From a virus: DNA of 64,000 nucleotides. The stretch is taken from positions 1 through 64,000 of IMG/VR virus record IMGVR_UViG_3300023116_000031; one strand, written 5' to 3'. The notes beneath the pieces are model-generated. The model searched no databases and was not told the origin of the DNA. It saw only the letters and a list, made by a program, of their open reading frames with translations. Of this stretch, positions 7,045 through 57,179 are shown piece by piece (position 1 is the first letter of the stretch; each line of letters starts with the position of its first letter). The translations under genes and the position numbers were made by a program.

Positions 7045-10000
7045 CTATGATCCGTTCGCTCCGATATATGTGCCGTCGCGCCCAAGCACATACCATGTAG
7101 GTTGCAATGATGTTGGATTTATCAACATCATACAAATGAAACTGGAGAGTCCAGCCTGACCTGAAATTGTAGGTGAAACCGTCCCTCCACCCGGCGTTTC
7201 AAATAGTGTTCCGTTAAAGAATATCGGAGCATGGCTGGCTCCGGTCTGAATAGTAAAGTCCGTAGCATATAAACCATGAATACAAAGATTAGCACCGTCA
7301 CTTAAAGTTGAAGAATCAGGAAGCACAAACGGGCCGGAGCCGCGAGTATCAATAAAATACCACTGCCCGTTCGCAAATGGAATGGGAATGTCTTCACTCC
7401 CGTCGCCGTAGTCCAAATAACGAACATCAACATTACCCCTGATTGTTCCCGAACCAAGATCCAGATTTGCTCCGTTGCTTCCTGCTCGCAATGTGACAGG
7501 GCCAGCAGTTCCACCGTTGAACTCAATATAATGTGTTGATGTGCTTCCGTCCGTACTAACACCATCATAGATTTTAATCTCTGGAAATGTGGAAACATCT
7601 CGCCCAACACCAATAGTCAACTGACAGTAATCTGGATCACTCACTCCCGTGCAGAGTGTAGAGAAACTAGCATCTAGTGTTGTAGATCCAGATCCAGGGT
7701 CACCAGCATAATCAGTGGCACCATCGAACGTATCAATGTCATAGTTAAGTGATCCAGCAGCAGTTAACTTACTTGTTACGTCGATATTGTTGAATAGAGC
7801 ATTTCCATTGACATCAACGCTCCAGTTTGAACTAGCAGTGTCTTCATCTTTAATCGCTTCAACGAAAAGTTGACCACTTTGATCCAATCGTAAGAGGTCT
7901 AACGATCCTCCATCGCGTTGAACATGAACAACGGGAGCCATATCTACACCGACCGGAGGCGCTTCAACGAGCAATGATGCTATGGTTCTATCATCTCCCT
8001 TTATCTTTACTTTACCATCCGTTGATGTTCCTGCACCAACGATAAGTCTATTTGTGGCGGCTGTAGCAAGAGACGCATTTCCTCCGCTATGTGTGATGGT
8101 TTGTGTGCTTGTTAGTGATGGTGTATTTACCGACGTTCCTGTGATGGCCCCAGCACTTGTGATACCCCAGTTGGTGCCTGGTCCGTCAAGGTCTTGAATA
8201 GCTTGAGTTCGAACTTCACCATCAGCCCAGGCTTTGAACACAGAAGCACCTGCAAATGTAATCAAATCGAGCAGAGGATTACCAGCAACTCCAGGTTGTC
8301 CATCGGCACCACGGACGATAAGTTGTGTGACTGTGGATTGTCCTCCAATCTCAACCTTTCCGGTACGACCTGCGATGTCATCCCCTACGGAAAGTGTCCC
8401 ATCAAAAGCAGCAGAACCATTATCGCTGATCGACCACTCCACTGGTGAATCAATATCTGTGAGGGATTTTAATGAGCCGACACCACCACTACTGATACTC
8501 CAGTTAGTGCTAGGAACATCGATGTCACCGATGGACTGAGCGTATACCGCACCATCAGCATCCACATTGAACAGCTCTGTTCCTGCGTTGTCCTCAACAA
8601 CAAAGACGGAATCTGTCTGTGTGCTATGTCCCTGAACGACGAGCTGTGGTTGATCTTGTGTGCCACCAATCTCTGCCTTACCAGCAAGCGCCGTGCCATC
8701 ACCAATAGTGAACAGCTCCGTTGCTCCAGATGTCAGCGTTGCGTTTCCACCGTTCTGCGTCAGCGCACCAGTATTTGTCAGCGCACCAGTATTTGTAATG
8801 TCTTTGAACTTACCTTCTCCGCCGGCTGTTATTTCCCAATTACCACCACTTGCATAAGCGTTACTGCGATCTCTCAGAGCTTCTGCGTAAATAAGACCAG
8901 TATCGAACATTTGAATTGGATTGCCGGTGGAGGCCGGGTCTGTGCGATCTTCTGATATTACAAATACTGGATTGGCATCAGTACCTTCGCGTGATGCCAC
9001 AACCAAGCCAACTTCATTGGCCACTCCTGAATATATCTCTACCGTTGGTGTAAAGAATCTATCTGTAAAATCTGCTCCTCCGACGACAGCAGAGTCAATA
9101 TCGGATACTCCTAAAACAGTTAACGATGATACCGTGGTTCCTTGAAAGATTGCTGTTCCGCCCGGAGCGATGCTCCAGTTATCACCTGGTCCGTCCGTAT
9201 CTGAAAGAGATTGAAACTGAGCTGCGCCGCTGGGAGGAATGACCCAGTTTGATGTACCTACACCTTTGGTTGGGTCTGGAAACCCAGTAAGATTGTTTGT
9301 GACTCGCACGCTACCATTATGAAATACATCAAACACTGTGTTGGTGGTATCAACCGTCGCGCCACCACCACCACTTACGGGATTAAATCCATATATTCTG
9401 AAGGCAGGCTGTCCAGCAGCACCGCTGCCGCCACTGTCAAGCGATGGGATCAGGTCCAACAGAGAAGTAGCACTTGTTGTTGTTCCTGTTATGTTCACTG
9501 CTGCTGAGATGTTATTCACATCAGGTGCGAGATCGCTGAGAACATTGTCTTCACACTTCTTGAACTTCCCTTCGCTGTCATTATAGAAAATGCCGCCATT
9601 CGCGTTGTCGAATGTGTTACAGTTCGTTAGTTCTCCTGCGACAAACTCTGCTCCCAAGTTAGAAACGACAAGCTCTGTTGTCAGTGAACCGAGACTTGTA
9701 ATACCTGTGCCGATCACATCAAATGTTACAACACCAGAAGTGTCCGTGACATTGACTGTGGATGTATCTTGAAGATCAGCGGATTGGATGATTGTTCCGC
9801 TTGAGTCCACTTGAATAGAGGATGATCCTACAGTTCGCGCTCCACACTGCCACAACGAACTGGTCTCATTCCACGCGATAGTGTCTCCGTTAGAACAACC
9901 TTGAAGTATTGCTAATTCGCCTGACTGTGTGAACTCAAGCCCAGATAGATTGGAGTTTGATCCGACCCCGTCTACTGCTCCATTAAGATCAACAGCAAAG

Positions 10001-10962
10001 GTTGCTGTGTCTGGGTCGGCCGTCGTATTGAGGCTGATAGTAACACCATCTCCGCCTCTCAGATCCAGTCGGTTGTTTCCATCTCCTGTTGCAACACCTT
10101 CAACATAAATTTCATCAGCGTTGACATTGCCTGCTTCCATATTCGTCGCGACCCCGGCTTCGCACTTCTTCATGTTCGTGCCGTCATACCAAATGCCAGC
10201 CACTATTTCGCCCGCCCCTGTGTTAGTGCCGCAGGTGAAGCCTGGGACCCCTGCCGAAATCGCAATACCAGCCCCGCTCAGTGTAAGCAATCCGCTCGAT
10301 GTTATGGATGTTAGTGTTCCCACTTCAACAATGCTATTTGAGTCGAAAAATGCTGTGACAGCACTACCACTGGAATCGAAGCCGATGTTGATATTAGGTG
10401 ATGTAAGCACACCAGTCTGGAAAATCGGATCTGCGACTTCCGCCGCGGCCCCGCCGTCCGAGCCGGCGGCACCCGGGTCAACGCTAACCGTCGATCCACC
10501 AGCCGCTACAGGTTGACACTCCCACCCATTCGTTGTGTCCCATTGGAGGACATCATTATCGAAGCAGGTTCGCAGTAGAGACAGATTAGTAGCATCGAAC
10601 TCCAGACCAGGGCCTGTGCTATGGAGTGTGATGTTGAGCGTAACGGTGTCCGGGTTTGGAACCGTATCAAGATCAAGCTCAATACCATTACCATCCAAGA
10701 AGTTCACGGTGGAATCGGGTGTGACAGTACCATTAATTTGAACAGCATCACCACCACCAGAAGTTAGCGAATTAACATCAGTTTTTATGGAATTAAGAAC
10801 AGTATCAATCTGATTCATGTGTGTGGATGTGATGCGGTCACCTCGATTAAATCCGTTCGGTCTCCCATCAAACCCATCCCAAATAACAGTTGCAAAAGCC
10901 AGTCCGGGGAGTAGACTAAATACTGTCAGAAGCGCAAGTGCCAGAGGCATCGTTCGTCTCAT
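7045..10962 (-). CDS. Signal-peptide-bearing fibre/adhesin-like protein (1305 aa)
   Basis: Signal peptide MRRTMPLALALLTVFSLLPGLAFA; G/S/T-rich beta repeats (D.D....NWSI..GG); C-x6-W-x5/6-W-x-C units. Confidence 0.7.
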   Translation of the reverse strand: MRRTMPLALALLTVFSLLPGLAFATVIWDGFDGRPNGFNRGDRITSTHMNQIDTVLNSIKTDVNSLTSGGGDAVQINGTVTPDSTVNFLDGNGIELDLDTVPNPDTVTLNITLHSTGPGLEFDATNLSLLRTCFDNDVLQWDTTNGWECQPVAAGGSTVSVDPGAAGSDGGAAAEVADPIFQTGVLTSPNINIGFDSSGSAVTAFFDSNSIVEVGTLTSITSSGLLTLSGAGIAISAGVPGFTCGTNTGAGEIVAGIWYDGTNMKKCEAGVATNMEAGNVNADEIYVEGVATGDGNNRLDLRGGDGVTISLNTTADPDTATFAVDLNGAVDGVGSNSNLSGLEFTQSGELAILQGCSNGDTIAWNETSSLWQCGARTVGSSSIQVDSSGTIIQSADLQDTSTVNVTDTSGVVTFDVIGTGITSLGSLTTELVVSNLGAEFVAGELTNCNTFDNANGGIFYNDSEGKFKKCEDNVLSDLAPDVNNISAAVNITGTTTSATSLLDLIPSLDSGGSGAAGQPAFRIYGFNPVSGGGGATVDTTNTVFDVFHNGSVRVTNNLTGFPDPTKGVGTSNWVIPPSGAAQFQSLSDTDGPGDNWSIAPGGTAIFQGTTVSSLTVLGVSDIDSAVVGGADFTDRFFTPTVEIYSGVANEVGLVVASREGTDANPVFVISEDRTDPASTGNPIQMFDTGLIYAEALRDRSNAYASGGNWEITAGGEGKFKDITNTGALTNTGALTQNGGNATLTSGATELFTIGDGTALAGKAEIGGTQDQPQLVVQGHSTQTDSVFVVEDNAGTELFNVDADGAVYAQSIGDIDVPSTNWSISSGGVGSLKSLTDIDSPVEWSISDNGSAAFDGTLSVGDDIAGRTGKVEIGGQSTVTQLIVRGADGQPGVAGNPLLDLITFAGASVFKAWADGEVRTQAIQDLDGPGTNWGITSAGAITGTSVNTPSLTSTQTITHSGGNASLATAATNRLIVGAGTSTDGKVKIKGDDRTIASLLVEAPPVGVDMAPVVHVQRDGGSLDLLRLDQSGQLFVEAIKDEDTASSNWSVDVNGNALFNNIDVTSKLTAAGSLNYDIDTFDGATDYAGDPGSGSTTLDASFSTLCTGVSDPDYCQLTIGVGRDVSTFPEIKIYDGVSTDGSTSTHYIEFNGGTAGPVTLRAGSNGANLDLGSGTIRGNVDVRYLDYGDGSEDIPIPFANGQWYFIDTRGSGPFVLPDSSTLSDGANLCIHGLYATDFTIQTGASHAPIFFNGTLFETPGGGTVSPTISGQAGLSSFICMMLINPTSLQPTWYVLGRDGTYIGANGS

Positions 10963-10995: not shown

Positions 10996-11002
10996 TATTT
11001 AT
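10996..11002 (-). promoter_or_regulatory. T4-type late promoter
   Basis: ATAAATA on the minus strand, about 35 bp upstream of the fibre-gene start. Confidence 0.6.
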
Positions 11003-11020
11003 GCGAACAGAGAGCCGAGT

Positions 11021-12886: not shown

Positions 12887-13759
12887 ATGTATCGTATCAT
12901 CATTACAATCGTGGCTGTATTGCTTTTCGTGTCACCATCACAGGCTGTTAAGGTAGATCAGGGTGGTAAGGTTCTGAACGAACATGCAGTTCAGATCGGT
13001 GGCAAGCGATCACCATTAGGGTCAAATGCTCCTGTTCAATCATCTGCTGGCACTTTCTATGGTGTTAGTTTTGCTCCAGCTTACACACCTGCATGTGCAT
13101 CACCATATAGCGGATTTCCGATTGATTTTGAGGGATCTGGAACTTGTGCTGCTCAAGAGGCCCAAATCACATTCGCCACGAGCGGCACCGATTGTGACTA
13201 CACAACAACTGTGCTGGAGGGATCGGAGTCTGCTTATCTAAATGGACAAGAACTTAGAATGCTACTTGGAGGAGTGGCAACTGACTATAAATCGGCTAAG
13301 ACTCGAATGGCATGGAGATATAGATATGTCACTGAACCCAATAATAATCGTCTTTTCGTTCAGCCCATGAATGGAGCTACCGTGACTCCAGTTTCATGTA
13401 CCTCAAGTCATTGTATGAAACTATACAGTCTTGTTAGTAGCCCGAACATACAATATAGATTTTATGATACTGAAGGCGCCCCTCCTTACTTCAGCTCGAC
13501 TAGCACAGGTAGTTCACTCGTAACTGGAACAACGTATCTAATGTGCTATGAATATGATCCATCGGTTGATACATCTTGGTTCTTCGTTGATGAGGTAGAC
13601 GGAGAATGGTGCGCTGGAGCCTATGCTTCTTTGAACTGGGCAGGGAATGGCGCAAATGTCGCTGTCACCGACTTTAACGCATTTGGTATCACAGCAGATT
13701 TTGGTGCCAATCTATATGAAGCTATTGTTGATGAGATCACAGCTTGTGATGCTCCATAA
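12887..13759 (+). CDS. Secreted Cys-containing beta-sandwich/lectin-like protein, paralog A
   Basis: GAGGAG RBS; signal peptide MYRIIITIVAVLLFVSPSQA; N-terminus nearly identical to the next gene. Confidence 0.65.
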   Translation: MYRIIITIVAVLLFVSPSQAVKVDQGGKVLNEHAVQIGGKRSPLGSNAPVQSSAGTFYGVSFAPAYTPACASPYSGFPIDFEGSGTCAAQEAQITFATSGTDCDYTTTVLEGSESAYLNGQELRMLLGGVATDYKSAKTRMAWRYRYVTEPNNNRLFVQPMNGATVTPVSCTSSHCMKLYSLVSSPNIQYRFYDTEGAPPYFSSTSTGSSLVTGTTYLMCYEYDPSVDTSWFFVDEVDGEWCAGAYASLNWAGNGANVAVTDFNAFGITADFGANLYEAIVDEITACDAP

Positions 13760-17091: not shown

Positions 17092-17249
17092 TATCTTCGC
17101 AACCTCCGAACCACAATACGATACCCAATCACCGCAAAGACAACCACAACCACCGCATACTCGTGACTAATAAGAAAGTCAAGGCCTGTGTCGATTACTC
17201 TCTCTACAGTCTTCAAAAGGTCTTTGGTAAACTTTGCTATTGCATCCAT
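17091..17249 (-). CDS. 52-aa single-TM protein (not in the ORF track)
   Basis: Hand translation: MDAIAKF...YAVVVVVFAVIGYRIVVRRLRR. Confidence 0.55.
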   Translation of the reverse strand: MDAIAKFTKDLLKTVERVIDTGLDFLISHEYAVVVVVFAVIGYRIVVRRLRR

Positions 17250-17255
17250 TCCAGT

Positions 17256-17384
17256 CTACCTCTGATTCATCTTCCGTATTGTGGAAATCAGCCCAACCAA
17301 CAATGCTGTTGCTGTAGCCAATACAATAGCGATGTCATATTCAACTAACACATCATGGATGGTGTGAACGATCTCTTCTGACAT
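17256..17384 (-). CDS. 42-aa single-TM protein (not in the ORF track)
   Basis: Hand translation: MSEEIVH...IAIVLATATALLVGLISTIRKMNQR; AGGAG RBS. Confidence 0.55.
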   Translation of the reverse strand: MSEEIVHTIHDVLVEYDIAIVLATATALLVGLISTIRKMNQR

Positions 17385-17409
17385 TACCTTCTCCTTGTTA
17401 GGTTCCCCC

Positions 17410-17416
17410 TATTTAT
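17410..17416 (-). promoter_or_regulatory. T4-type late promoter for the leftward operon
   Basis: ATAAATA on the minus strand, upstream of 17384. Confidence 0.6.
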
Positions 17417-17530
17417 GCATGTTAGTTTAGCCGAAACCATGACACGTTGCGTCAAAAGGTCAAAAAAGCTATTCAAAAGAGATAGAAAAGAAGCCAAATC
17501 GTGTAGGAAGAGGTCAGGAACAGCAGCCAG

Positions 17531-17583
17531 GAACAGCCGATGTAGCGCGCGGAAGGACAGAAGAACAGCCGATGTAGCGCGCG
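17531..17583 (+). repeat. Two copies of a 21-bp direct repeat
   Basis: GAACAGCCGATGTAGCGCGCG at 17531 and 17563. Confidence 0.85.
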
Positions 17584-17599
17584 AAGCGCGCGTAAAGGT
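17572..17599 (+). repeat. Left arm of a 28-bp inverted repeat
   Basis: 27/28 match to the reverse complement of 19877-19904. Confidence 0.85.
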
Positions 17600-17715
17600 G
17601 TGCTAATCAGTCATCTCAGCCCGCGTGTCAAGGGCGGCTGCACGCCCTTCCCCTGCGGGGAAAATCCGCAGAATCAGCCGCAACCCCTTGATTTTGCTCC
17701 GCTTTTCAGCCGAAC

Positions 17716-17768
17716 GTGACCCCGAGTCATCTTTTACCCCTTGACACGGGCTCGCAGGGAGCTACCTT
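17716..17768 (+). promoter_or_regulatory. Operator-like palindrome plus promoter
   Basis: GTGACCCCGAGTCAT, then TTGACA-N16-TACCTT. Confidence 0.6.
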
Positions 17769-18129
17769 TTGGATGCTGGGGGGAGTTCCCGGCGGAAAGG
17801 TGATCCCATGACTCTGACTGGTTTCTGTTTCGCGGCTGGAATGGCTGCCCTCGCGGGATGCGTCGCGTCCTATAAACGAGTCCACTGGATCGACTGCATC
17901 GGCATCTCGATCCTGGCTTTCGCCACTGGAGGCCTTCTCGTCATCACATTGGAGCCTGCACACTAATGCACTTAGAAACAGCACACTATACACCCACCAC
18001 TGAAGAGGCTCTCGAAACCGTTCGAGCTGAACGAGCCTTTTTGATTGAACTCTGCGCCGAGCTGCGGCGAGAGAATGAACGACTCCGAGCCGCTTTGATC
18101 GGTGTCCCTGAAGAGGAGCTTCCTTTCTA

Positions 18130-18462
18130 ATGAACGTCCATGCTTTCCCCATCTCTATTACTCGTCTCGAACTCTACTTTCCCGTTTCGGGCGAGGCTGA
18201 GGAAGTCTTTGCGCGGGAGGCTGCTATCGCGCCAGCCTTGGCTGCGCGTAAAGACGTAGGAGCCTCAGCCATCACTCGTCTGATCTTTACCGAGAACGAG
18301 GCTGTCTCAGCCGCTACGAATGCCATGCACCTGCGGAACCTGAAGGCCGCAGCCAAAGCCTACAACATGGCCTTCTTCTCGAAGTGGGTTTCGGCTGAGG
18401 CTGTGTTCGAGTGCGTGTCGAACTGGGCGCGAGGGGCTGCCTACGAGCTGACGGAGGTTTGA
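18130..18462 (+). CDS. Hypothetical early protein
   Basis: GAGGAG RBS; Ala-rich ORF. Confidence 0.55.
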   Translation: MNVHAFPISITRLELYFPVSGEAEEVFAREAAIAPALAARKDVGASAITRLIFTENEAVSAATNAMHLRNLKAAAKAYNMAFFSKWVSAEAVFECVSNWARGAAYELTEV

Positions 18463-18657
18463 AATGTCATTGATCGCCTGTGAAGTATGCACCACTGTTC
18501 TAGAGGCCGCGGCTGGCGACACGGTTGTCTGGGATGACCTGAGCCCCCTCTGTGTCGATTGCGCCGATGAGATTCCCCCGTGGGGACGACGCCCAGCTCG
18601 ACTACAGCGGCGTATGGCTCTGAATTATTTTCAGCCCTAGCCGGTCCTATCGCACCT

Positions 18658-18750
18658 ACAAAAAATAGTCTAAAACCCCTTTAAAATCAAGGGGTTGCGG
18701 CGGCGCAAATATTTGATTTCTGACCCATCTGGGCTATAATATGGGTGTAG
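18658..18750 (+). promoter_or_regulatory. Early promoter with an upstream 39-bp stem-loop repeat (copy 1)
   Basis: ACAAAAAATAGTCTAAAACCCCTTTAAAATCAAGGGGTT, then TTGATT-N16-TATAAT. Confidence 0.75.
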
Positions 18751-18898
18751 TGAGTGAGGAGAAAAGAGAGATGATCGAAACCCAAGCCCGAGTCCCCTTC
18801 CTTGAGGGTCACGTCGAAACCTTCCAATTTGAGATGATCGCCGTCGCTGTCGCGATCTTCCTCGCTCCCGTTTTCACCCTTCTCTAAAGGAAACCCAA

Positions 18899-19171
18899 AT
18901 GCCCAAAGCAATCACCGTATCTACCTTCAATCGCGAAGCTGGCGAGCTGAAATGGGAGTGTTCGTCGGTCGTCAGACCCAGCGATCTCTTTCGCCCGTGG
19001 GAACCCGAGAACATGGTCTCGGCGGCTACGAACTCGTTCGGAACCAGCGTCCTCATCAATGTCGATTCGGTCGAAACCTCGATGATGGCGAAACTGTCGC
19101 TCGAAGAAGCCATCGCGCTTCGCAAGGAACTCAACAAGGCGATCAACGCCGTCCGAAAGGAACTCAACTAA
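18899..19171 (+). CDS. Hypothetical early protein
   Basis: AAGGA RBS; GC3-biased codons. Confidence 0.6.
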   Translation: MPKAITVSTFNREAGELKWECSSVVRPSDLFRPWEPENMVSAATNSFGTSVLINVDSVETSMMAKLSLEEAIALRKELNKAINAVRKELN

Positions 19172-19172
19172 C

Positions 19173-19514
19173 ATGATGAAAGAAGAAATCCTCGGTCGCC
19201 TCGCGGTCCTGATCGGTCGTATTGACGAGAAGCTCGTCGCCTATTACGCGAAAACCTATGACTTCGTTGAGCCGCCCGAGCTGCGGGTCCGTCTGGGGCG
19301 CCGCTACGCCAAGATCGTGCGGACCGGTGCTGGGCGTGGCGAATCGGTCTACTTCTTCGTAGACCTCGACAACGGCGACCTGCTGAAGGCTGCGTCCTAC
19401 AAGGCCCCTGCGAAGGGCGCTCGGGCCTCGCTGTTCGACGACGATCTGGGCATCTCTGCTGTGGGCCCGCACGGTGCGGGCTACGCTGGTGTCAACTACG
19501 ATGGAGCATGGTGA
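19173..19514 (+). CDS. Conserved phage early protein
   Basis: GRRYAKIV...SVYFFVD...GDLLKAASYKAPAKGAR motif, common in T4-like early genes. Confidence 0.7.
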   Translation: MMKEEILGRLAVLIGRIDEKLVAYYAKTYDFVEPPELRVRLGRRYAKIVRTGAGRGESVYFFVDLDNGDLLKAASYKAPAKGARASLFDDDLGISAVGPHGAGYAGVNYDGAW

Positions 19515-19696
19515 TGGGTGAGTATGATGAAATGACGGCTGAAGAGCTGCTGGCTGAGATTCGGCTCGTTCAAGGCATTCTGGAGTTCGAGACGGGTTTC
19601 GCGGCTGAGACGATGGAAGCCTTCTCGGAGGTTCTGGGCGAGCTGATCGAAGCACATCGGCTGAGGGCTGCTGGCGAGACGGCAGAGGGGTTCTGA
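19508..19696 (+). CDS. Small acidic hypothetical protein
   Basis: Coupled to the upstream ORF. Confidence 0.5.
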   Translation: MVMGEYDEMTAEELLAEIRLVQGILEFETGFAAETMEAFSEVLGELIEAHRLRAAGETAEGF

Positions 19697-19876
19697 CGGC
19701 TTTCGGTATACTTGTTAGTCGTAGCGCGCTCTGCGCGCGTAGAACGGCTTTCGGCAGTATATTGTTATAATACCGCCTGGGACTCCTAGCCGCTAGACCC
19801 CCCCAATACAATGGGGGAGAGGGTTAGCGTGAATGCCGGAATCAAAATTTTTTCCGGCACCCCAGCACACCCCCAG

Positions 19877-19904
19877 ACCTTTACGCGCGCTGCGCGCGCT
19901 ACAT
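19877..19904 (-). repeat. Right arm of the 28-bp inverted repeat
   Basis: ACCTTTACGCGCGCTGCGCGCGCTACAT. Confidence 0.85.
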
Positions 19905-19965
19905 TAACGAAGTTCCTTACCTTACCCTTCACCTTCCCACCTTCCCACAAAGGAAACACATCGTT

Positions 19966-20145
19966 ATGAACGAACTGAAAGCATACAAGCAAGCTCTCCA
20001 CCTCGCGCTCAAGACGCTCGCTGAGACTGAACTGGCTCCCACCGAGGCTCTGCTCGACCTTGAACAGGCTGTCGCGTTTCTCGAATACAAATATAATTTT
20101 ACCTCGGAAAATTTCTGCGGTAGTCTTTCGTCGGAAGACTTCTGA
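19966..20145 (+). CDS. 59-aa hypothetical protein (not in the ORF track)
   Basis: AAGGA RBS; hand translation MNELKAYKQALHL...SSEDF. Confidence 0.5.
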   Translation: MNELKAYKQALHLALKTLAETELAPTEALLDLEQAVAFLEYKYNFTSENFCGSLSSEDF

Positions 20146-20148
20146 AAA

Positions 20149-20481
20149 ATGGCAAAACGAAAGATGTGGAAAGAGGGCTCGAAGGAATACTCCCTTCACG
20201 AGTCGGGATCGCTCGCGATTACGGTAAAGCTGAAGAGCATCAACTCTGCTCTGATGGTTATCGTAAATACGGCTACGAACCCTCCGCAATATGATAGTGG
20301 AGCATGGTGGCCACTTCGGCTCGATGGCGGATTTTCAGCGGAGCCTGTCGAGTTTGGCTACACCCCCGGAGAGCCTGGCTCTGCATGGCCGTGGAATTGT
20401 CTGTCAGAGGAAGACGAGGCTTTGGTTGACGATCTGGTGACAGAGGTTGGTTGCATGTTGTTTGATCATCAAAGGAGTTGA
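20149..20481 (+). CDS. Hypothetical protein
   Basis: ORF in the tightly packed plus-strand run. Confidence 0.55.
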   Translation: MAKRKMWKEGSKEYSLHESGSLAITVKLKSINSALMVIVNTATNPPQYDSGAWWPLRLDGGFSAEPVEFGYTPGEPGSAWPWNCLSEEDEALVDDLVTEVGCMLFDHQRS

Positions 20482-20609
20482 TTGAGAATGGACCTTTACA
20501 TTTTTCTTGGTGTTGTTTCGTGGTTTGTTCTTTCACTTGTCTTCGGTGTTTTCATCGGTGGGCTTTTGAAAAGAAATTCTGATTACTATGATGTAGTAGG
20601 AGAGGAGGA

Positions 20610-20852
20610 GTGATGGCTATGGGCGAGAAACGAAGGTTTTCTGTGGTGTGGAGAGAATATCGAGATTGCGAAGCGGTGATCGAAGCAGACTCGATCGAGG
20701 AAGCGGAGGCAATGATTGTCGATGATGATGGCGACTTGGTGTCCGCAGCCGAGATGGAATCTGTGGTGGAGGAGCTGTGGCGCAGCGATCTGTTCGTTGA
20801 GTCTGGTTCAGAGTTTCTCGATGAGATTGTGGAGGAGGATGACGATGAGTGA
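20610..20852 (+). CDS. Acidic hypothetical protein
   Basis: GAGGAGGAG RBS; IEADSIEEAE motif. Confidence 0.6.
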   Translation: MMAMGEKRRFSVVWREYRDCEAVIEADSIEEAEAMIVDDDGDLVSAAEMESVVEELWRSDLFVESGSEFLDEIVEEDDDE

Positions 20853-21039
20853 CAGCAGGCTCGAAATCTTTGAAGAACTGGCTGATCATGCAGAATCTCT
20901 GGAGGAGGTTCTGGTTCGCATGTGCGAGCTGGTCTCGGACCTGGAGATGAGCATCAACGAGGATGAGAGGCTTCGCTCGGAAAGTCGATTGTTTGAGTTT
21001 GCGAGTGAGGCTGCAAGGATGGTTCAGGAGGGTCGATAG
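20845..21039 (+). CDS. Acidic helical hypothetical protein
   Basis: MSDSRLE start overlaps the upstream stop. Confidence 0.55.
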   Translation: MSDSRLEIFEELADHAESLEEVLVRMCELVSDLEMSINEDERLRSESRLFEFASEAARMVQEGR

Positions 21040-21154
21040 CGATGGAAAATGAAGTGGTCAAAGAAATCTTGGCTCCGTTGGAGGAGGCTCTCGATCAGGT
21101 GCGTTCGGACCTTTTGAGGTTGTTTGCAAAGATGTTTGAGGAGGACTGAGAAAA

Positions 21155-21703
21155 ATGGCGGCAGGGCGTCGATACCATAGGGCGGTTGGATACTGCGAAA
21201 ATAGTGACTGTGTGCAGAAGCATCGCGGAGTGTTTCTTCTGAACAATCCGGGGGAGTTCTATTGCCCGAGTTGTCGAGAGGAGGGGTTCGTCGAATCGGA
21301 GGAAGGAAGTTTCTCTGGCAATCCAGAGATGTTCAACGAGGTTCGTGTTGAGTTTGATTTTGCTCCTGCGGATCGAACCTATTCAGCCACAGCCATTGTT
21401 CGTGATGAGAGCTTGGGTGATGTGAACCAGCATGGCATTCCGCATGGCGTCTATGTTATTCGATCGCCTTTGGTCAAGACGCATGTTCGCGCATTGAAGG
21501 TGGCTGAGTCGGTGCTTTCTACTCTGAGCGTCTATGGCGGGCTGGACGAGAAGAGCGAGCTGCCGAGGTCGAGCGAGGTTCTGCTGAGCTTCGATAAGCC
21601 GAGGGCTGAGTTTGCCAAGGATCTCGTTCGGCTAGCCGAGAGCTGGGAGGCTGGGCCGAAGGCCAACATCGAAGCGGAGCCGTTCCTTCCCCGAGGGAAG
21701 TGA
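21155..21703 (+). CDS. Putative zinc-binding protein
   Basis: C-x4-C (CENSDC) and CPSC pairs; good RBS. Confidence 0.6.
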   Translation: MAAGRRYHRAVGYCENSDCVQKHRGVFLLNNPGEFYCPSCREEGFVESEEGSFSGNPEMFNEVRVEFDFAPADRTYSATAIVRDESLGDVNQHGIPHGVYVIRSPLVKTHVRALKVAESVLSTLSVYGGLDEKSELPRSSEVLLSFDKPRAEFAKDLVRLAESWEAGPKANIEAEPFLPRGK

Positions 21704-21877: not shown

Positions 21878-21896
21878 AAAAAAGGAGTTCCCGAGA

Positions 21897-22209: not shown

Positions 22210-22211
22210 GA

Positions 22212-44555: not shown

Positions 44556-45460
44556 CATTCAACGACTTCTTGACAGAGAATAATACCTTTCGCGGAGATG
44601 CGAATGAGATCGTTCTGGGAGTTCAGCTCGCAGGATCATGGGATAGTATTATCAACTCATCAGAAGTCAAGAAAGCTCTCAAGGTTCGTCGCGATGCACT
44701 CGATCCAGAAGAATACGCAGAGGAGGAACGCAGAGCGAAGACCATGGCACCCGAGCTGAGAACTTGGTTCGATGAACAAGGTTTCGGTAAGATCAAGACA
44801 GTCGAGTGGGTGGGCAGAACGACATCTGATTCGCCCAACGCTGTGGATTTGATCGTGACATTTACTGACGGAAAGACATTTGGTGTCTCTGCGAAGAGTA
44901 CCGGGCAGGGAAGAGAGATTGTCTATCAGTCAGCAGGGCTTGGTACGATTGACTCTGCGCTCAAGACCAATCTCGTGGACACCCGAAACAGAGCAGAGCA
45001 GCGATTTATTGACAAATACAACCTATCGGATCAGCCTATTCGCCGGAAGGAAGAGATTCGAGGAAATCCTATTATGACAAAGAAGGCGAACGAAGAGCGC
45101 AGCGTAATACTTCGGAACATTAGAAATACGCTATATCGTAAACTAGACATGCTACCACAACCCAAACTGAAGCAGTTCATTTCCACCCAACTGTTAGGTG
45201 ATAACACCCATTCTTTGGGTTATGTTCAAGTGACGGGGCATGGATCTGGTAAAGTCACGATCACAAATCCGAAGAAGAACGAAAAGCGAACAGCCCTGAA
45301 GACACAGAAGGTCGTCATGGACAAAAGCGGTAATGACTCAATTACATTCAAAGCAGGGGACATAAATATAGCAAGGGTAAGAATCAAGTATGGTACAGTT
45401 CCGCTTGCGACCCCGATTGAAGTTTCTATTGATCCTTGGTCTATTGTGAGGAGTGAGTAA
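44552..45460 (+). CDS. Restriction-endonuclease-like PD-(D/E)xK protein with a capsid-targeting-like N-terminus
   Basis: MTFNDFLTE; GDANE; NAVDLIV....FGVSAKS. Confidence 0.6.
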   Translation: MTFNDFLTENNTFRGDANEIVLGVQLAGSWDSIINSSEVKKALKVRRDALDPEEYAEEERRAKTMAPELRTWFDEQGFGKIKTVEWVGRTTSDSPNAVDLIVTFTDGKTFGVSAKSTGQGREIVYQSAGLGTIDSALKTNLVDTRNRAEQRFIDKYNLSDQPIRRKEEIRGNPIMTKKANEERSVILRNIRNTLYRKLDMLPQPKLKQFISTQLLGDNTHSLGYVQVTGHGSGKVTITNPKKNEKRTALKTQKVVMDKSGNDSITFKAGDINIARVRIKYGTVPLATPIEVSIDPWSIVRSE

Positions 45461-45781
45461 ATGAGTATTGAATTAGGAAAACATATGACAATCATTACTG
45501 GTGTGATTGCAATTATAGGCGCTCTTTTTGCTAGTGTCGAAGGTTATCGTGCTTTTTTGAATCGCATTGATGAGCTTCACGATCAGATCGCTCGGCTTGA
45601 AGAGGTTGAGGAACAACTTGAAGAGCAAGTCGAGAGGATGGATTATAGACTCACTATTCACAGTAATCGCTGGGCAGCGCATTACGGTCTTTGGGGTGAT
45701 AGTATTGAACGCAAGTCTATTGAGACTGGAATAGATGTTCGTGCTTTAAGACCTGTGGGGTCGTCAGAAACATTGGAGTAG
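45461..45781 (+). CDS. TM plus coiled-coil protein
   Basis: N-terminal hydrophobic helix followed by heptads. Confidence 0.55.
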   Translation: MSIELGKHMTIITGVIAIIGALFASVEGYRAFLNRIDELHDQIARLEEVEEQLEEQVERMDYRLTIHSNRWAAHYGLWGDSIERKSIETGIDVRALRPVGSSETLE

Positions 45782-45785
45782 TTCA

Positions 45786-47372
45786 ATGCGTAAGCTATTT
45801 TACATACTGGTCTGTATTGTTGCTGTTCTTCAACTCGGATCATTTATTAGCCTCAACCTTGGTGGCGGGACTAGTGCTGTGCCTAGAGAACAGGGTTTGC
45901 AAACTAATATAGAAGAACTTACTCGATTCCATGATCTCTGGGTTAATGAAGGCGGAACTGGACCTGTTACTACTGATCGTGGGTTACTGGCCACAGATGC
46001 GGGTGCCGCGAAAGATAGCTGGGCATATTCTATTGATGCTGGAGATTGGGAATGGGATTACATTCCAGAGCCAACATGCATTCCCGTTGGCGCGCTCGGG
46101 TTGGGCCCGGAATACGATCTTGATGGTGCTGCTTCAGACATTCTAGCCATGGCACTATACGGTGCTTTACTGGATATTAATTCACCCGGAACAGGAGATG
46201 CCTATTTTTCTGCTGTTAAGACACGCATATTAGAATTTACTAACATAACGGGATTTGGGGGAATTTTCGAAGTCCCTGAAGTAATGCTTCAAAATGGGTG
46301 TATTTTTGCAATTTCGTCTGCTATTCCGCAGATACTTGAAGCAGCATGGCTGATTGAGGAGGCTGGATATACTGAAACTAATGAATGGGAATCTTCCGAT
46401 CGACAGACTCTTGCTTTTTGGGCAGTAAATGTTGTGTTTCCACTTGCAAGTTTTGATGCTAGACAACGTAAAGAATATCAGGGAATTACTGGATTGGGTG
46501 CGACAATGGCTATCGCAGCATATTCTGTTGGTATACAAAATACAGGTATAGTTGAAACATGGGATGGCTATAGGACTACGCCGAATAACTGGCTGTTGCA
46601 ACCATCAACTGATCATTTACTAGAGTGGTTGGACAATTCTACAGGCCAGGCGAAAGGGATTCGAAATAGTGCGTGTTTTCAACAAAATCGTACTTTTGGG
46701 CTTCAGTCAAATGGTAGGTTCCCCGATGAAACTAGACAGGTGGAACAGAATACTTTTGGTATGCCTCCTTATGGTGGATTTATTGACGATAGTGGGAGAA
46801 CTCCTTTCCCATCCAACAACGTCGCTTCATGTGATTATGGGAGTCTTGGTGCGGTCGCGGGCGATCCGCTCGAAGATCCAAATGGAACCTGTAGCACACT
46901 TTCCGGGCAAATTACATCTGGATGCCTAAGTCATGTCCAATTTCAACAGTTGGCAACAAATTCTTTTGCTCGCACCTGTGAGATATTTCGACGGTTAGAC
47001 AAAGGCGGCGGCCGCTGTTTCGATTTAGACGTGCATAACCCAGGAGGCGGAACAACAGCACTAAATTCTGCTATTTTGTTTTCAACGACAGAACTTTTGG
47101 CAGCCGGAGATGTCCGGTACCGAACTTTTGGGCCATATCAAGATTTCTGGACACACGATGAACTTCAAGGATACATTCATGTTGCATCAACTTATTATGA
47201 CAACTATTGTTCATATATTGCTCTAACAGACGGAGATGTTCCTCTTCAGGGTGGGGATATGTATCCGTATACAAGAATCACACACAGAGACGGTGTAGCT
47301 CATGTCGGCCCTCTTTCTGCGGGATCGACTTGGGATTGCGCTACATGGGATAACACGTTATGGTCAAATTAG
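45786..47372 (+). CDS. Exported protein, possibly alginate-lyase-like (alpha/alpha) fold
   Basis: N-terminal signal or anchor; helical pattern AL...AY...EAAWL...W...D...L..W, and G.FPDE.R; many Cys. Confidence 0.45.
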   Translation: MRKLFYILVCIVAVLQLGSFISLNLGGGTSAVPREQGLQTNIEELTRFHDLWVNEGGTGPVTTDRGLLATDAGAAKDSWAYSIDAGDWEWDYIPEPTCIPVGALGLGPEYDLDGAASDILAMALYGALLDINSPGTGDAYFSAVKTRILEFTNITGFGGIFEVPEVMLQNGCIFAISSAIPQILEAAWLIEEAGYTETNEWESSDRQTLAFWAVNVVFPLASFDARQRKEYQGITGLGATMAIAAYSVGIQNTGIVETWDGYRTTPNNWLLQPSTDHLLEWLDNSTGQAKGIRNSACFQQNRTFGLQSNGRFPDETRQVEQNTFGMPPYGGFIDDSGRTPFPSNNVASCDYGSLGAVAGDPLEDPNGTCSTLSGQITSGCLSHVQFQQLATNSFARTCEIFRRLDKGGGRCFDLDVHNPGGGTTALNSAILFSTTELLAAGDVRYRTFGPYQDFWTHDELQGYIHVASTYYDNYCSYIALTDGDVPLQGGDMYPYTRITHRDGVAHVGPLSAGSTWDCATWDNTLWSN

Positions 47373-52489: not shown

Positions 52490-52936
52490 ATGCGCGCGTT
52501 TATTACAATGTTGATCGTGCTGTTGATGACAGCTCCAGTGTTTGCAGCAGATTATACCAAAAAGGTTCCAACCAACAAGTGTTCGGCTCCTGTTAGTATC
52601 ACAGACGGAGACAACTGGTATTGGGATATTGGTTATTCATCAAACGCTGAAGCTGCTCCTGTTTCTGTTTTTCTTGATCACGACATCGGCGATACTTCGA
52701 TTTCAGCTCAGAGATTGACTCTTTACGCCTGTTTAACTGCTGAAGATGCCAATAGTTGTATTGCTCTTCAGTGGGACTCCGATGCTGATGGTGTCCCAGA
52801 TACCAATGTCATGGGTGCGACTGCTGCGTTGACGGATACTGGTGTGACAGGAATCAGTGGATTCCCATATCTTCGTATTGAAGAGACAGGCACAGTAGAT
52901 TCAAATGCAAGATATGTTGTTTGTAGGGGATTTTAG
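52490..52936 (+). CDS. Secreted Cys-containing protein
   Basis: Signal peptide MRAFITMLIVLLMTAPVFA; four Cys. Confidence 0.6.
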   Translation: MRAFITMLIVLLMTAPVFAADYTKKVPTNKCSAPVSITDGDNWYWDIGYSSNAEAAPVSVFLDHDIGDTSISAQRLTLYACLTAEDANSCIALQWDSDADGVPDTNVMGATAALTDTGVTGISGFPYLRIEETGTVDSNARYVVCRGF

Positions 52937-53698: not shown

Positions 53699-53944
53699 AT
53701 GTGGGAAACAATTATTGGTGGAGTAGTTACTTTAGTTGTCGGATTATTCGGTATCTGGTGGAAAAATAGAAGCGACAAGACAAAGCAAGAAGAACTCGGC
53801 GAACAGAGAATTTCTAATCTGCACCATCAGAAAAATGCAGCAGCCAAGAAAGCTGCCGACAAAAGACTCGGACAGGATTTACCCGAAGGGAAGGAGTTAA
53901 TAGATGCGCTGGAAGAAGACGCTCGCCGCTCTGGTCGCGATTAG
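53699..53944 (+). CDS. Putative i-spanin-like protein
   Basis: N-terminal TM followed by a helical charged domain; CTAAATA at 53690. Confidence 0.45.
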   Translation: MWETIIGGVVTLVVGLFGIWWKNRSDKTKQEELGEQRISNLHHQKNAAAKKAADKRLGQDLPEGKELIDALEEDARRSGRD

Positions 53945-56900
53945 TATATCTGGATTAGCATATGCTGGACAGTTAACTCCCGGTACCGACACTACAACAT
54001 TTACTTCAGGTACCAATATTAGTTCATCTGAAGTTAATACTAACTTTAACAATATCATTAATGATGGAGTGAATGACAACGCCACTGATATTAATAATCT
54101 GACTAACCGAGTTGTTGTTCTTGAACCTCAGGTTATAACTGTTGCATCATCAAATATAGTCCCCATAACAATAAACTCATTCCACACAATTACTGGTAAT
54201 ACAGAAATCAAAAATTTTGTTGTGGCAGCTAACGCCGCGCCTGAGGCGGGTTCAAAATTTACAGTTAAATTTCAAAACAATATTGTTTTGGCTCACGATG
54301 ATTCGAGTGTTCAGGCCGCCGGCCGGCTTTCTCTTCTTGGTTCAGCGGATACTGAATATCTCGCAGGCGACATTGTTGAATTTATATCGGACGGAACAAT
54401 TCTATATGAAATTCCCCAAGCGCCGAGAGATTTCATCTTCGGAAATATTGACCCCGACCCCAACTCAATCAAGTCGATGCACACTATGACAACTATTGCT
54501 TCTAGGGATGATGGATATATCGACAATTTTAGACTTGAATCTCCATATCACGCGAGAACGACCGCGATTACTTCACGATGGGCAATAGATGGTGAGAAGG
54601 TTTATTGTACCGCAGCCGGCTGGCCAACTACGAGAACAGAGACAGGCTGGAACTTAAACACAGCGAAGCCTTGGAAGGAGTGCCCAGCTACAAACGAAAG
54701 CGGTACAATTAGTTTCCCAGCAACGCTCAAAACAAAGACGACTGCACTCAACCTGGATCATACGAATGCAACAGCGAGTGAGGCTCATGCTCTGGCAATC
54801 CAGCTTTGGTCTGCTGGTGATACTGATCCCAATGGTGTTCACCTCAACCTCTGGCTTGGAGGTGGATCTCAAACTGGTGGGGACGAGGGACCAAACATTA
54901 TGCGTCTGACAGTGGACGACTCCACTCATACGCCATCAGGATATACTGTTGTTCCTGCCACTGTTTCAGGGTTGGACCCTGCTACGCTCGTAACGCTTAA
55001 TGTAGTAAATAGCGGCGGCGGCGACGCGGTGATGGGAGAAACAGCAACGAAGGGTGTCGGTGAAGGGAGACTTATTGTCTTCAAGCCAAGCGGGGGATAC
55101 ATCACCTCGACAGGAAATACCATTCAGCCTCCAGGTACAACCTCTGGTGGCGCGCCGTATGCTATAGATCAAACGGAACCTATTCCACAGGACAGGTTAC
55201 CCTATGCTCAAGGTTCGTTCCCTCCCCTCCGAGGCCAATCAGGAGGATATGGAGGGCATGATGGATGGTGGTACATCACTGGAGCAGATCCAACCGGATG
55301 GGCATCAGTTGAAGTGGGTTGGTGTGTAAAGGATGATCTTTCCGATTACACACCGGCGGTTGCATATGTTCCGCTCGACGGCAGCTTGGGCTATGAAGAC
55401 TCAGCTCAATGGCTTTACATCAGGGATGTGGGAACCTGGGACGACAACGGAACAACACGACCAAGGTTCAGAACAGAATGGTTCTCGCAGAGTCGAGACT
55501 ACCACTATCCATCAGGAACACTTTGGGGAGGTAACTATACATTCGCTCCGTGCGCGCATGTTGTGAATCCAATCTATAGTGACACGAACCCGAGTCAAGT
55601 TACGTCGATAGAAGTGTTCAAAGAGACAAGCTGGAGTAGTAGTAGTGGTGTTGTTGAGTTCTATGTACCTTCATATGGTGACATGCCATTCCAAGGTATT
55701 ACACTCACATTCAACTCCAAGCTGGGCTCGGGCAATAACGGAACAGGACTGGAGCTTATTCAGCTTCTCGGAAATTCAGGCCCTGGCACGGTGCAACCGA
55801 CCCGATCTGGTCGATATGCGATGGGAACAGGCCTCAGGATGACCACATCAGGTGGGGCCTATAATGGAGAAATTCAGGTCATAAACAACTCACTCAAGGA
55901 CGGAAAGTATCACCCGTGGGATAGAGGAGTTGAGTGTGATTTAGGAGCCTGTAGGATTGGGATCGACTACGACTACTACGATTATCATCAAACGTCGGGT
56001 TCTACGGTGATCTCAATTACTCCGCCGGACAATCCTGCGAAGGCCTTCGGAGGCGCACAAAACTGCGGAAACGGAGGGCTTGATGTGCCCGGCGGCGCGC
56101 CGGCCGGCGGCGGATCTTGGGGAACGGGTGATGGTCTGCTTGAAGCATGTTGGGGCAATGGATACGGAACCTCAAACTACATGAACGTGGTTGACGTAGA
56201 AGGACATACCGAGCTGGATCTTCGACTGACTCGTGTTGGATGGGGAACGGGACGAGGATACTTCCCCGTCATTGGAAAATCTGTATCGGCCGTGGCGCCT
56301 GGCGCAGCCAAGGATGGTCAGGCTGTGGTCTGGGATGATACAAATCAGTATCACGAATACGCTCCGATTCTTGATCTTACAGCTCTGGAAACAGGCATTC
56401 AAAGTGATTACGTTATCAAGTGGAATGGCGCAAATTGGACAGCAGCCCCGGATGCTGGTGGATTGGGATCAACGACGGTCGCGGGAATGTCGGATACTAC
56501 TATCGCATCTCCATCGGCGGGAGAGGTGTTGTTATACAATGATGATACCAACACCTGGAAAAACGAAAAGTCTTTGGTCCCAAGGCAAACATTCGCCGGG
56601 TCCTCGGGCGTGACGCAACCCTCTACATACGCAACCGCTGTTGTGTATGACGTATCGTTAGCACCGGCTGAAACGGGATTTGGACGAAAACATAAAGTGA
56701 CATTCAATAACTTGTATCACAATACAAATGGCAATTTTCAGAAGATCGGAATCGAACTCAGTAGTGATGGCGGAGCTAATTGGATCAACTCCGGTCTTTA
56801 CTACAACTTCATTACACAAAAGGCAAACGGGCTCTTCACCGGAAGTGCTGGGTTCGGTTCAAATGCGACCCAAGTATACATTCAAACCGAAGGCTCTGGG

Positions 56901-57179
56901 CAGTCAATCACAGGCGTCAAAGAACTTACATTTGAGATTGACCAAGCGTACTCAGGGGGGAGTCCGACAGGAATTAAGGTTGATGGGTTGCTTACCATGC
57001 TAATCGGCGGAAATCAACAGCTTGCAAGGGTGACTGGATTTATAAACACAACTGGTACCACGGTAATTACGAATGATGTCACAAATATTCGATTGTCATT
57101 TGGCACCCAGGCGCCAGGAAGTCCAGATCAAAGTGTAATCAGTTCGTTGTGGACATCGGAGACGTATCTTATTGACTAA
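53904..57179 (+). CDS. Signal-peptide-bearing tail-fibre/spike-like protein (1091 aa)
   Basis: Signal peptide MRWKKTLAALVAISISGLAYA, then TFTSGT.I.S.EVN.NF; fibre repeats G..L.W/Y.....W. Confidence 0.7.
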   Translation: MRWKKTLAALVAISISGLAYAGQLTPGTDTTTFTSGTNISSSEVNTNFNNIINDGVNDNATDINNLTNRVVVLEPQVITVASSNIVPITINSFHTITGNTEIKNFVVAANAAPEAGSKFTVKFQNNIVLAHDDSSVQAAGRLSLLGSADTEYLAGDIVEFISDGTILYEIPQAPRDFIFGNIDPDPNSIKSMHTMTTIASRDDGYIDNFRLESPYHARTTAITSRWAIDGEKVYCTAAGWPTTRTETGWNLNTAKPWKECPATNESGTISFPATLKTKTTALNLDHTNATASEAHALAIQLWSAGDTDPNGVHLNLWLGGGSQTGGDEGPNIMRLTVDDSTHTPSGYTVVPATVSGLDPATLVTLNVVNSGGGDAVMGETATKGVGEGRLIVFKPSGGYITSTGNTIQPPGTTSGGAPYAIDQTEPIPQDRLPYAQGSFPPLRGQSGGYGGHDGWWYITGADPTGWASVEVGWCVKDDLSDYTPAVAYVPLDGSLGYEDSAQWLYIRDVGTWDDNGTTRPRFRTEWFSQSRDYHYPSGTLWGGNYTFAPCAHVVNPIYSDTNPSQVTSIEVFKETSWSSSSGVVEFYVPSYGDMPFQGITLTFNSKLGSGNNGTGLELIQLLGNSGPGTVQPTRSGRYAMGTGLRMTTSGGAYNGEIQVINNSLKDGKYHPWDRGVECDLGACRIGIDYDYYDYHQTSGSTVISITPPDNPAKAFGGAQNCGNGGLDVPGGAPAGGGSWGTGDGLLEACWGNGYGTSNYMNVVDVEGHTELDLRLTRVGWGTGRGYFPVIGKSVSAVAPGAAKDGQAVVWDDTNQYHEYAPILDLTALETGIQSDYVIKWNGANWTAAPDAGGLGSTTVAGMSDTTIASPSAGEVLLYNDDTNTWKNEKSLVPRQTFAGSSGVTQPSTYATAVVYDVSLAPAETGFGRKHKVTFNNLYHNTNGNFQKIGIELSSDGGANWINSGLYYNFITQKANGLFTGSAGFGSNATQVYIQTEGSGQSITGVKELTFEIDQAYSGGSPTGIKVDGLLTMLIGGNQQLARVTGFINTTGTTVITNDVTNIRLSFGTQAPGSPDQSVISSLWTSETYLID

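Follow-up and report, generated by a model that had tools for sequence, protein, structure and literature searches.

In textbook tailed phages every part of the virion is built in the cytoplasm, and the tail fibres of T4 carry no signal peptide. To our knowledge the exported phage proteins so far are small lysis or exclusion factors; others on record are Sec-signal or signal-arrest-release (SAR) endolysins, spanins and lipoproteins of the T5 Llp type. RI of T4 is an exported phage factor acting in lysis and exclusion (PMC8385771), phage genes with Sec signals have been reported in Porphyromonas phages (PMC10367356), and the MAT fibres of Bdellovibrio bacteriovorus are Sec-exported, phage-like trimeric fibres (Caulton et al., 2024; PMC10769870). 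Here we describe seven genes for predicted exported proteins, two of them fibre-like proteins of more than 1000 amino acids (aa), on the viral contig IMGVR_UViG_3300023116_000031 from IMG/VR. The window that we analysed is the first 64 kb of this 73.8-kb contig, which has an estimated completeness of about 40%.

From its gene content the phage is a T4-like myovirus, as an earlier note on this DNA had proposed: UvsX (40418), the gp41 helicase (41795), the gp61 primase (57479), ThyX and NrdA match their PHROGs families strongly, and gp41 is 55–58% identical to its counterparts in marine and freshwater cyanomyoviruses. A gp43-type DNA polymerase frame (37666–40176) was recognised from length and position only. 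Similarity of the contig DNA to deposited phages was negligible, and near-identical DNA is present in many salt-marsh metagenome runs. No virion-module genes were recognised within the contig fragment; the neighbours of the exported genes are replication and nucleotide-metabolism genes, plus holin- or spanin-like genes for transmembrane proteins. The seven genes for predicted exported proteins are the following (Cys, cysteines; arrows, predicted cleavage points; SD, Shine-Dalgarno sequence):

7045–10962, minus strand: P0001, exported fibre-like protein, 1305 aa; 24-aa signal ending AFA↓T; SD AAGGAG
12887–13759, plus strand: P0002, exported protein, 290 aa, 8 Cys; 20-aa signal ending SQA↓V; paralogue of P0003
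13780–14628, plus strand: P0003, exported protein, 282 aa, 6 Cys; signal ending SQA↓V
45786–47372, plus strand: P0004, 528 aa, predicted lyase-fold ectodomain, 10 Cys; described from its translation, SD, AlphaFold2 (AF2) model and fold match
52490–52936, plus strand: P0005, exported protein, 148 aa, 4 Cys; signal ending VFA↓A; SD
53904–57179, plus strand: P0006, exported fibre-like protein, 1091 aa; 21-aa signal ending AYA↓G; SD
57180–57437, plus strand: lipoprotein-type protein, 85 aa, lipobox LTTG↓C at the end of ..LLLIITLTTG↓C, 2 further Cys; directly after P0006

Compared with MAT fibres, P0001 shows the same Sec signal, conserved N-terminal region, long (here predicted) homotrimeric stalk, exchangeable C-terminal binding domains and disulfides (predicted here, and in MAT lying in the tips). 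Its relation to phage fibres and tailspikes is similar, and its repeated module is common in Bdellovibrionales genomes. Unlike MAT, it is encoded by a lytic T4-like phage, it has no S74 chaperone-protease domain, and its constant N-terminal part is far shorter than the MAT domain of about 130 aa. A profile of the N-terminal half of P0001 matched no PDB sequence, solved MAT fragments included; the MAT N-terminal domain is not among the solved structures.

Cellulophaga phage phi18:3 (NC_021794.1) encodes gp085, gp086 and gp087, proteins of 547, 785 and 559 aa with classical leaders, and its record labels them virion, structural or tail proteins ‘based on experimental MS/MS proteomics analysis’ (MS/MS, tandem mass spectrometry). 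These are, like the proteins described here, large proteins of a tailed phage (547–785 aa) with signal-peptide-like leaders, and they are annotated as virion proteins. However, phi18:3 is a podovirus of Bacteroidota whose leaders follow the Gln+1 habit of its host, and there is no sequence similarity. Its three proteins contain 0, 1 and 3 cysteines, so that disulfides are not implied, and their genes lie together next to the endolysin region.

With the T4 fibres (gp34/gp36/gp37 and gp12) and the giant fibres of the cyanomyovirus Syn9 the proteins share the T4-like lineage, a length of 1100–1300 aa, richness in Gly, Thr, Ser and Asn, a predicted intertwined homotrimer (P0001) and the mosaic exchange of distal parts. 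The T4 and Syn9 fibres differ in having no signal peptide (for Syn9 by the same heuristic as used here), in having their genes in or next to the structural module, and in showing no Pfam, PHROGs or tblastn similarity to the present proteins. Known exported phage proteins use, as these would, the host Sec or lipoprotein pathway and act in the envelope during infection or lysis, but all of them are small regulators, lysis proteins or blockers of receptors, and they include neither a trimeric fibre of more than 1000 aa nor a hypervariable, sugar-directed battery. There is also a functional likeness to phage tailspikes and depolymerases and to periplasmic polysaccharide lyases.

The earlier note had called the system undescribed. 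This was overstated, since the Sec-signal genes of Porphyromonas phages, the leader-bearing proteins of phi18:3 that are annotated as virion proteins and the MAT fibres are on record. A literature search for tail fibres with Sec signals in T4-like phages or cyanophages gave no pertinent result, and no description of an extracytoplasmic branch of tailed-phage morphogenesis was found in the literature searched. The set belongs to a known kind, phage-encoded exported proteins of the envelope and of host recognition. Within this kind three things stand out here: the predicted trimeric fibre of more than 1000 aa, the presence of a coherent set of sugar-directed proteins in a T4-like phage, and the boundaries of the cassettes, which coincide with the signal or follow it closely.

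Export signals and cysteine content

The six open reading frames (ORFs) from P0001 to P0006 are all present, with ATG starts backed by strong SD sequences. Inspection of the translations showed 1–3 basic residues followed by 12–20 hydrophobic residues at each N-terminus. The five small-residue cleavage sites claimed in the earlier note (AFA, SQA, SQA, VFA and AYA) were found in the translations, and the P0004 protein has a basic region and hydrophobic core without a clear cleavage site. We took as a Sec signal a basic n-region, a 7–15-residue h-region and small residues at −3/−1 at a true N-terminus, scored by inspection and with a crude script. AAGGAG, GAGGAG or GGAG stands 6–9 nucleotides (nt) before each ATG ahead of the hydrophobic segment; the second ORF begins at ATG 12887, which has its own SD, and not with the longer GTG 12842 frame. 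None of the six ORFs has an in-frame Met shortly downstream that would skip the hydrophobic segment. The true starts therefore do not lie behind the hydrophobic segments, a circumstance that the earlier note had named as telling against export.

A scan of all ORFs added a seventh exported-type protein, that of 57180–57437 with its lipobox. Lipoboxes follow the pattern [LVI][ASTVI][GAS]C after a hydrophobic region (the PROSITE PS51257 rule). In total the crude signal heuristic gave 7 matches in the 73.8-kb contig, including the proteins of 1305, 1091 and 528 aa. The same heuristic gave 5 matches on the 177-kb genome of Syn9, all of 217 aa or less; one was probably a spurious antisense ORF and one was plastocyanin, which served as a positive control. 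None of the giant fibre or structural proteins of Syn9 was picked up. Because this control yielded fewer matches, and small ones only, the density of predicted exported proteins is unusual for this kind of phage.

The earlier note had asked whether homologues keep the signal. It was present in every homologue found, across all the sets compared, despite overall identities of 36–42%. For P0001 the homologues were P0010 (on two metagenome contigs), P0018, P0019 and P0021, and P0005 has a 91%-identical, signal-bearing homologue in the related viral contig L001. The tandem paralogues P0002 and P0003 correspond to a single-copy signal-bearing homologue at L003:1587–2399. Twin-arginine translocation was considered for P0001, which begins MRRT.., and was rejected, because its signal is both short and strongly hydrophobic and the homologue P0019 lacks the arginine pair.

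Metatranscriptome libraries contain contigs that match the window with full identity; they take in the 5′ end of the 45786 gene, parts of the 52490 and 53904 genes and the 53904/57180 junction, bridging 45638–45854 and 57013–57205. As evidence this is weak, DNA carry-over being possible; the coverage is consistent with expression but is not proof of it, and stretches without coverage carry no information.

The several cysteines that the earlier note had seen in all six proteins were confirmed. Their predicted mature parts hold 12, 8, 6, 10, 4 and 8, and that of the lipoprotein-type protein holds 2, so that all seven counts are even. Among the other 41 Cys-containing proteins of the contig 12 have even and 29 odd counts (Fisher’s exact test p = 0.0007 against 7/7). 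Organisms that form disulfides are known for an excess of even cysteine counts among their exported proteins. In P0001 the 12 cysteines are arranged as six neighbouring pairs, and each of the 12 is kept in all five homologues compared, whose identity is otherwise 36–47%. The mature parts are also high in Gly, Thr, Ser and Asn and low in Lys, Arg and Glu relative to the rest of the proteome.

Conserved signals, even counts and invariant cysteines thus give good support to export and disulfide bonding. Because parity and invariance point to disulfide bonding, maturation most likely takes place outside the cytoplasm, as the earlier note had supposed. Very probably, then, the seven genes encode true Sec substrates, five cleavable, one a lipoprotein and one cleavable or signal-anchored, which would leave the cytoplasm unfolded and form their disulfides in the oxidising compartment of the envelope.

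Predicted structures and cassette exchange

P0001 consists of the signal, a conserved N-terminal segment, four Cys-loop modules of about 55 aa, NW(S/E)I repeats and a C-terminal domain. When compared with a homologue the first 60 or so residues were near-identical, at an overall identity of 36%. Trimer modelling, as the earlier note had suggested, was carried out with three copies of residues 25–330 and gave an ipSAE of 0.80 in all three runs, compared with 0.00 in three controls. The model has more than 1000 contacts over residues 25–326, at least 90% of the contacts are common to its runs, and its predicted local distance difference test score (pLDDT) is 79. In calibration the mark was reached by 20/30 solved pairs of one chain and by 1/23 single chains. 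P0001 is accordingly modelled as an intertwined homotrimer, in keeping with a fibre.

An HMMER search with the N-terminal half of P0001 found the module in 126 representative proteins. Its pattern is SGLEF..L.LLQGC....ILKW.....W.C, closed by one Cys pair (window 9763–10110, minus strand). Of these carriers 110 begin with Met, and 72/110 have a signal-like N-terminus. Scanning GTDB genomes with a profile from a 6-row alignment gave 156 confirmed places in species-representative genomes (loci including L008–L087), mainly of Bdellovibrionales, Patescibacteria (Moranbacteria and Saccharibacteria) and Omnitrophota, with the module occurring up to 20 times in single proteins of 1600–3100 aa (P0023–P0025). 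All three groups are reported to be predators or epibionts, which must grip other cells. Pfam has no model for the module, and ten module-bearing bacterial proteins had no Pfam match.

The AF2 model of P0004, built from eight sequences, has a mean pLDDT of 59, with values of 70–96 over residues 40–280. In a fold search with VIA-align it matched chondroitinase 9o3q (Z 22.2, root-mean-square deviation 3.5 Å, 297 residues) and the glycosaminoglycan lyase 8khv (Z 22.0), followed by further lyases at 19.7, 19.6 and down to 15.3, over about 285–316 residues. The lower matches (Z 19–15) included polysaccharide lyase families PL17 and PL38, PL5 alginate lyases, AlgL (4ozw), ulvan lyase and heparinase II. 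All of the top 15 rows were lyases apart from one related dermatan sulfate epimerase, and the tool quotes a helical background of about 14. By Foldseek alone the match was weak (E 0.014). The model thus suggests, at the level of fold only, that the P0004 ectodomain is an (alpha/alpha)-toroid of the polysaccharide-lyase type. With such lyases P0004 would share the fold, and an export signal as in periplasmic AlgL; unlike them it belongs to none of their sequence families (5–12% identity) and its N-terminal segment possibly retains it on the membrane. This hydrophobic segment (LQLGxFI..LGGG) is unusually well conserved and is kept in 7/7 homologues, so that the N-terminus may be an uncleaved signal-anchor; SAR-type release was considered for it as well.

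In P0002 and P0003 a near-identical signal and 42 mature residues are followed by divergent heads; their DNA is 90–100% identical over the first 180 nt or so and then about 50% identical. An Atlas model of P0003 residues 70–282 (predicted template modelling score, pTM, 0.69) resembled CBM4_9, LamG and heparin lyase I clusters with TM-scores of 0.58–0.62. As a lead only, both proteins may be ConA-like, lectin-like jelly rolls.

P0006 begins with a VNTNF..NATDINxL segment after its signal, continues with a central domain, ends in GxxLxW-type motifs and contains 8 cysteines. It is an orphan, with no homologue in a set of 5.8 billion proteins. At the P0006 position of the related contig L002 (IMGVR_UViG_3300025671_000143) lies a signal-bearing beta-helix protein of 839 aa (L002:4442–6961; Beta_helix PF13229, 32.3 bits against a cut-off of 25.9), whose N-terminal segment is 52% identical to that of P0006, and the central domain is common to the signal-bearing L003:2465–4663. 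AF2 modelling of this domain from a two-row alignment gave a pLDDT of 27 and no usable fold, Atlas searches with P0006 gave scores of 0.81 or less, none of them usable, and PDB sequence searches with P0006 and P0008 gave no match. The 839-aa protein in L002 is followed by a Cys-rich protein of more than 2491 aa that likewise bears a signal (L002:6968–14440), with 50 cysteines in the part seen. Its internal repeat units each begin near AWGHLHP(D/E)C; it has no Pfam match, and its N-terminal jelly-roll-like domain is the one found as an insertion in P0004 homologues of 792–795 aa (P0011 and P0013).

None of the six proteins fell into a Pfam or PHROGs family at E ≤ 0.01, the T4-type fibre families included. 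No match was obtained by tblastn of P0001, P0003, P0004, P0006 and P0008 against 50,697 phage records, or by IMG/VR scans with P0001, P0003, P0004 and P0006 singly. The earlier note had likened the segments that follow the signals of the two giant proteins to virion-anchoring N-termini of fibres: the segments are there, but they have no match in Pfam, PHROGs, PDB sequences or the phage records. Its label of fibres or adhesins suits the modelled trimer of P0001 and does not suit the lyase fold of P0004 or the jelly rolls suggested for P0002 and P0003 by the Atlas model.

In related contigs the flanking genes are 95–100% identical. At the 45786 locus identity is about 87–100% up to around codon 28, then about 50% or less to the stop, then 85–98%, and one relative has an extra jelly-roll domain inserted here. 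At 7045–10962 the values are 95–97% before the gene, 90% in the signal, about 50% across the body and 82–98% beyond the stop. Downstream of 53300 the relative L002 has entirely different genes. Because identity drops shortly beyond the signal codons and returns where the gene ends, the exported parts are hypervariable cassettes. They change fastest in an otherwise conserved backbone, as do proteins that are confronted with variable host surfaces.

Four smaller features accompany these genes:

45461–45781, plus strand: 106-aa protein with an N-terminal transmembrane helix and a coiled coil; holin- or i-spanin-like, weak match
53699–53944, plus strand: 81-aa protein with an N-terminal transmembrane helix and a charged helix; i-spanin-like, weak match; overlaps the P0006 start by 41 nt
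10996–11003, minus strand: late-promoter-like motif CATAAATA(GGG), 41 nt upstream of the P0001 start
45361–45368, plus strand: late-promoter-like motif ACATAAATA, 100 nt before the 45461 transmembrane gene and about 425 nt before 45786

The two small proteins are encoded directly upstream of P0004 and P0006. Their topology, an N-terminal transmembrane helix with a coiled coil, fits the spanin or holin type, and their PHROGs matches are weak: phrog_1009 (4e-5) and the holin family phrog_1296 (1e-3) for 45461–45781, which is kept beside the P0004 homologue in L006, and an Rz-like spanin (3e-3) for 53699–53944. The lipoprotein-type product of 57180–57437 has no family match and, judged by its lipobox, may be an o-spanin-like partner. 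Together the three may represent a split spanin pair or a holin that carries the large exported genes as insertions.

An extended T4-late-like motif, (G/A)CATAAATAG(G/A)G, occurs at five places, 43467 (+), 45361 (+), 49677 (+), 11003 (−) and 17417 (−). Four of the five lie just upstream of gene starts, including those before 43500 and 49693, and the extended motif is probably a late promoter of this lineage. The 8-mer alone shows no enrichment (8 occurrences against an expectation of about 13). The earlier note had placed most of the exported genes behind late promoters or among late genes. This applies directly to P0001 and indirectly to 45786, but the other four genes have no late-type motif nearby, and the neighbours are replication and nucleotide-metabolism genes.

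Destination of the exported proteins

A lytic T4-like lineage would thus send large, trimeric, disulfide-bonded, sugar-directed proteins through host secretion, encoded by the fastest-diversifying genes in its backbone. Very probably they make up a sugar-directed kit outside the cytoplasm, comprising the predicted trimeric fibre P0001, the fibre-like P0006, two lectin-like proteins with a common docking N-terminus (P0002 and P0003), the lyase-fold enzyme P0004, the small P0005 and the small lipoprotein of 57180–57437. Where this kit goes is a separate question. We tentatively favour, at a probability of about 0.45, that it acts on the envelope of the infected cell and on the surrounding polysaccharide and does not join the particle. 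Late in infection, alongside the holin- and spanin-like proteins, the lyase would cut capsule or matrix polysaccharide and the fibres and lectins would bind it. Cell and debris would then no longer trap progeny or accept further phages, and virions would escape more easily. The exported parts are swapped as cassettes between otherwise near-identical phages, an exchange to be expected of proteins that must track variable host surface sugars.

Action at the envelope is favoured because the set contains an enzyme-type member and two lectin-type members, because its genes are found next to those for lysis-type membrane proteins and not within any virion module, and because a periplasmic lyase has a cellular analogue in AlgL. 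If this is right, phages dismantle or mask the sugar coat of their host from inside, which bears on superinfection, biofilm release and marsh carbon flow.

Several points weigh against action at the envelope. In a host with two membranes Sec export alone would strand a trimeric fibre of about 1300 aa in the periplasm, an awkward place for it, and no signal for outer-membrane export or anchoring was found. The lyase assignment comes from a model with a mean pLDDT of 59 and a poorly modelled C-terminal half, for a protein with no Pfam match and 5–12% identity to lyases, and the matches to holins and spanins are only weak (E 1e-3 to 3e-3). Receptor-binding fibres of virions have exactly this design, a conserved docking segment at the N-terminus with exchangeable distal parts, and in phi18:3, a cultured phage, leader-bearing proteins were annotated from MS/MS of virions. 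As the contig is about 40% of a genome, conventional signal-less fibres could lie elsewhere.

Some of these points lead to the next-best reading, which we consider possible but somewhat less likely: that the two trimeric fibres, whose tips might be the lectin-like paralogues, mature in the periplasm and dock through their conserved N-termini on virions built in the cytoplasm. They would do so only once holin, endolysin and spanin breach the envelope, and would be the receptor-binding gear of the phage. The trimer modelled for P0001 would suit this role, as would the late-promoter-like motif directly upstream of its gene and the 42-aa mature N-terminus that is near-identical in P0002 and P0003 below different heads. 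In T4 assembly the tail fibres are added last and join the completed particle spontaneously. Our estimate for docking was raised because of the phi18:3 record and because of the docking segment with its swappable heads. The phi18:3 annotation is, however, silent on whether the leaders are removed and on whether gp085, gp086 and gp087 are integral or co-purifying. The genes here stand outside a recognisable structural module, their products resemble neither T4-type fibres nor any fibre in the 50,697 phage records, and no docking partner was identified. P0004, moreover, is enzyme-like and possibly membrane-anchored, and contents become diluted at lysis. Were the proteins nevertheless to join the particle, tailed-phage assembly would have an unrecognised extracytoplasmic step, and pipelines that treat signal-bearing proteins as non-structural would mis-predict the host-range gear of many uncultured phages. 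Either way, for envelope action as for docking, the combination of export signal, even cysteine count and cassette boundaries offers a simple genomic signature for such gear.

It is improbable that the proteins are borrowed host-type adhesion fibres like MAT of Bdellovibrio, displayed on the infected cell so as to change its adhesion or mask its receptors. The Cys-loop module sits mainly in genomes of Bdellovibrionales, Patescibacteria and Omnitrophota, most of its carriers have signals, and in MAT a signal and a constant N-terminal domain precede a trimeric stalk whose tips are swapped (PMC10769870). Yet the common module does not tell the direction of transfer, solved MAT fragments gave no sequence match, Pfam found no Peptidase_S74 domain in P0001 or P0006, and a lytic T4-like phage has little time to gain from altered host adhesion.

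Weakest of all is the proposal that nothing is exported and that the N-termini are cytoplasm-facing tethers to the inner membrane, or mis-called starts, on proteins that fold in the cytoplasm: the unclear cleavage site and unusually conserved segment of P0004 and the 41-nt overlap at the P0006 start would fit it, but it is at odds with the well-spaced SD before each ATG and the lack of an alternative downstream Met, with five textbook −3/−1 sites, 7/7 even cysteine counts and signals conserved across divergent homologues, and with a rule that picks up plastocyanin and leaves out the Syn9 fibres.

Neighbouring genes and other features of the window

An amidase-type endolysin is encoded at 36683–37408 and has no signal. 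Towards assigning a host, searches of the contig found no tRNAs and no Rfam matches, and the G+C content (GC) of genomes with the Cys-loop module did not discriminate. At 2870–4471 (plus strand) the phage encodes a 533-aa protein with the full architecture of a proteasomal ATPase (Pfam Prot_ATP_ID_OB_N 58.5, Prot_ATP_ID_OB_C 47.4 and AAA 130 bits) and the C-terminal end ..GQYL, which is kept in the relative L004. Such cargo is unusual in a T4-like phage and may be a hint at the host.

An 11-kb stretch at 17100–28100 has a GC of 0.52–0.54, compared with 0.44–0.48 elsewhere, and few recognisable genes. Among these are PhoH (25524–26285, plus strand) and an AAA_5 ATPase (26854–28080, plus strand); most of the other ORFs have no Pfam match, and the real genes are overlapped by long ORFs on the antisense strand. 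An ORF of 503 aa (32907–34418, plus strand), flanked by the clamp-loader gene and, downstream, by nucleotide-metabolism genes, has a C-terminal HNH endonuclease domain and may be a homing endonuclease.

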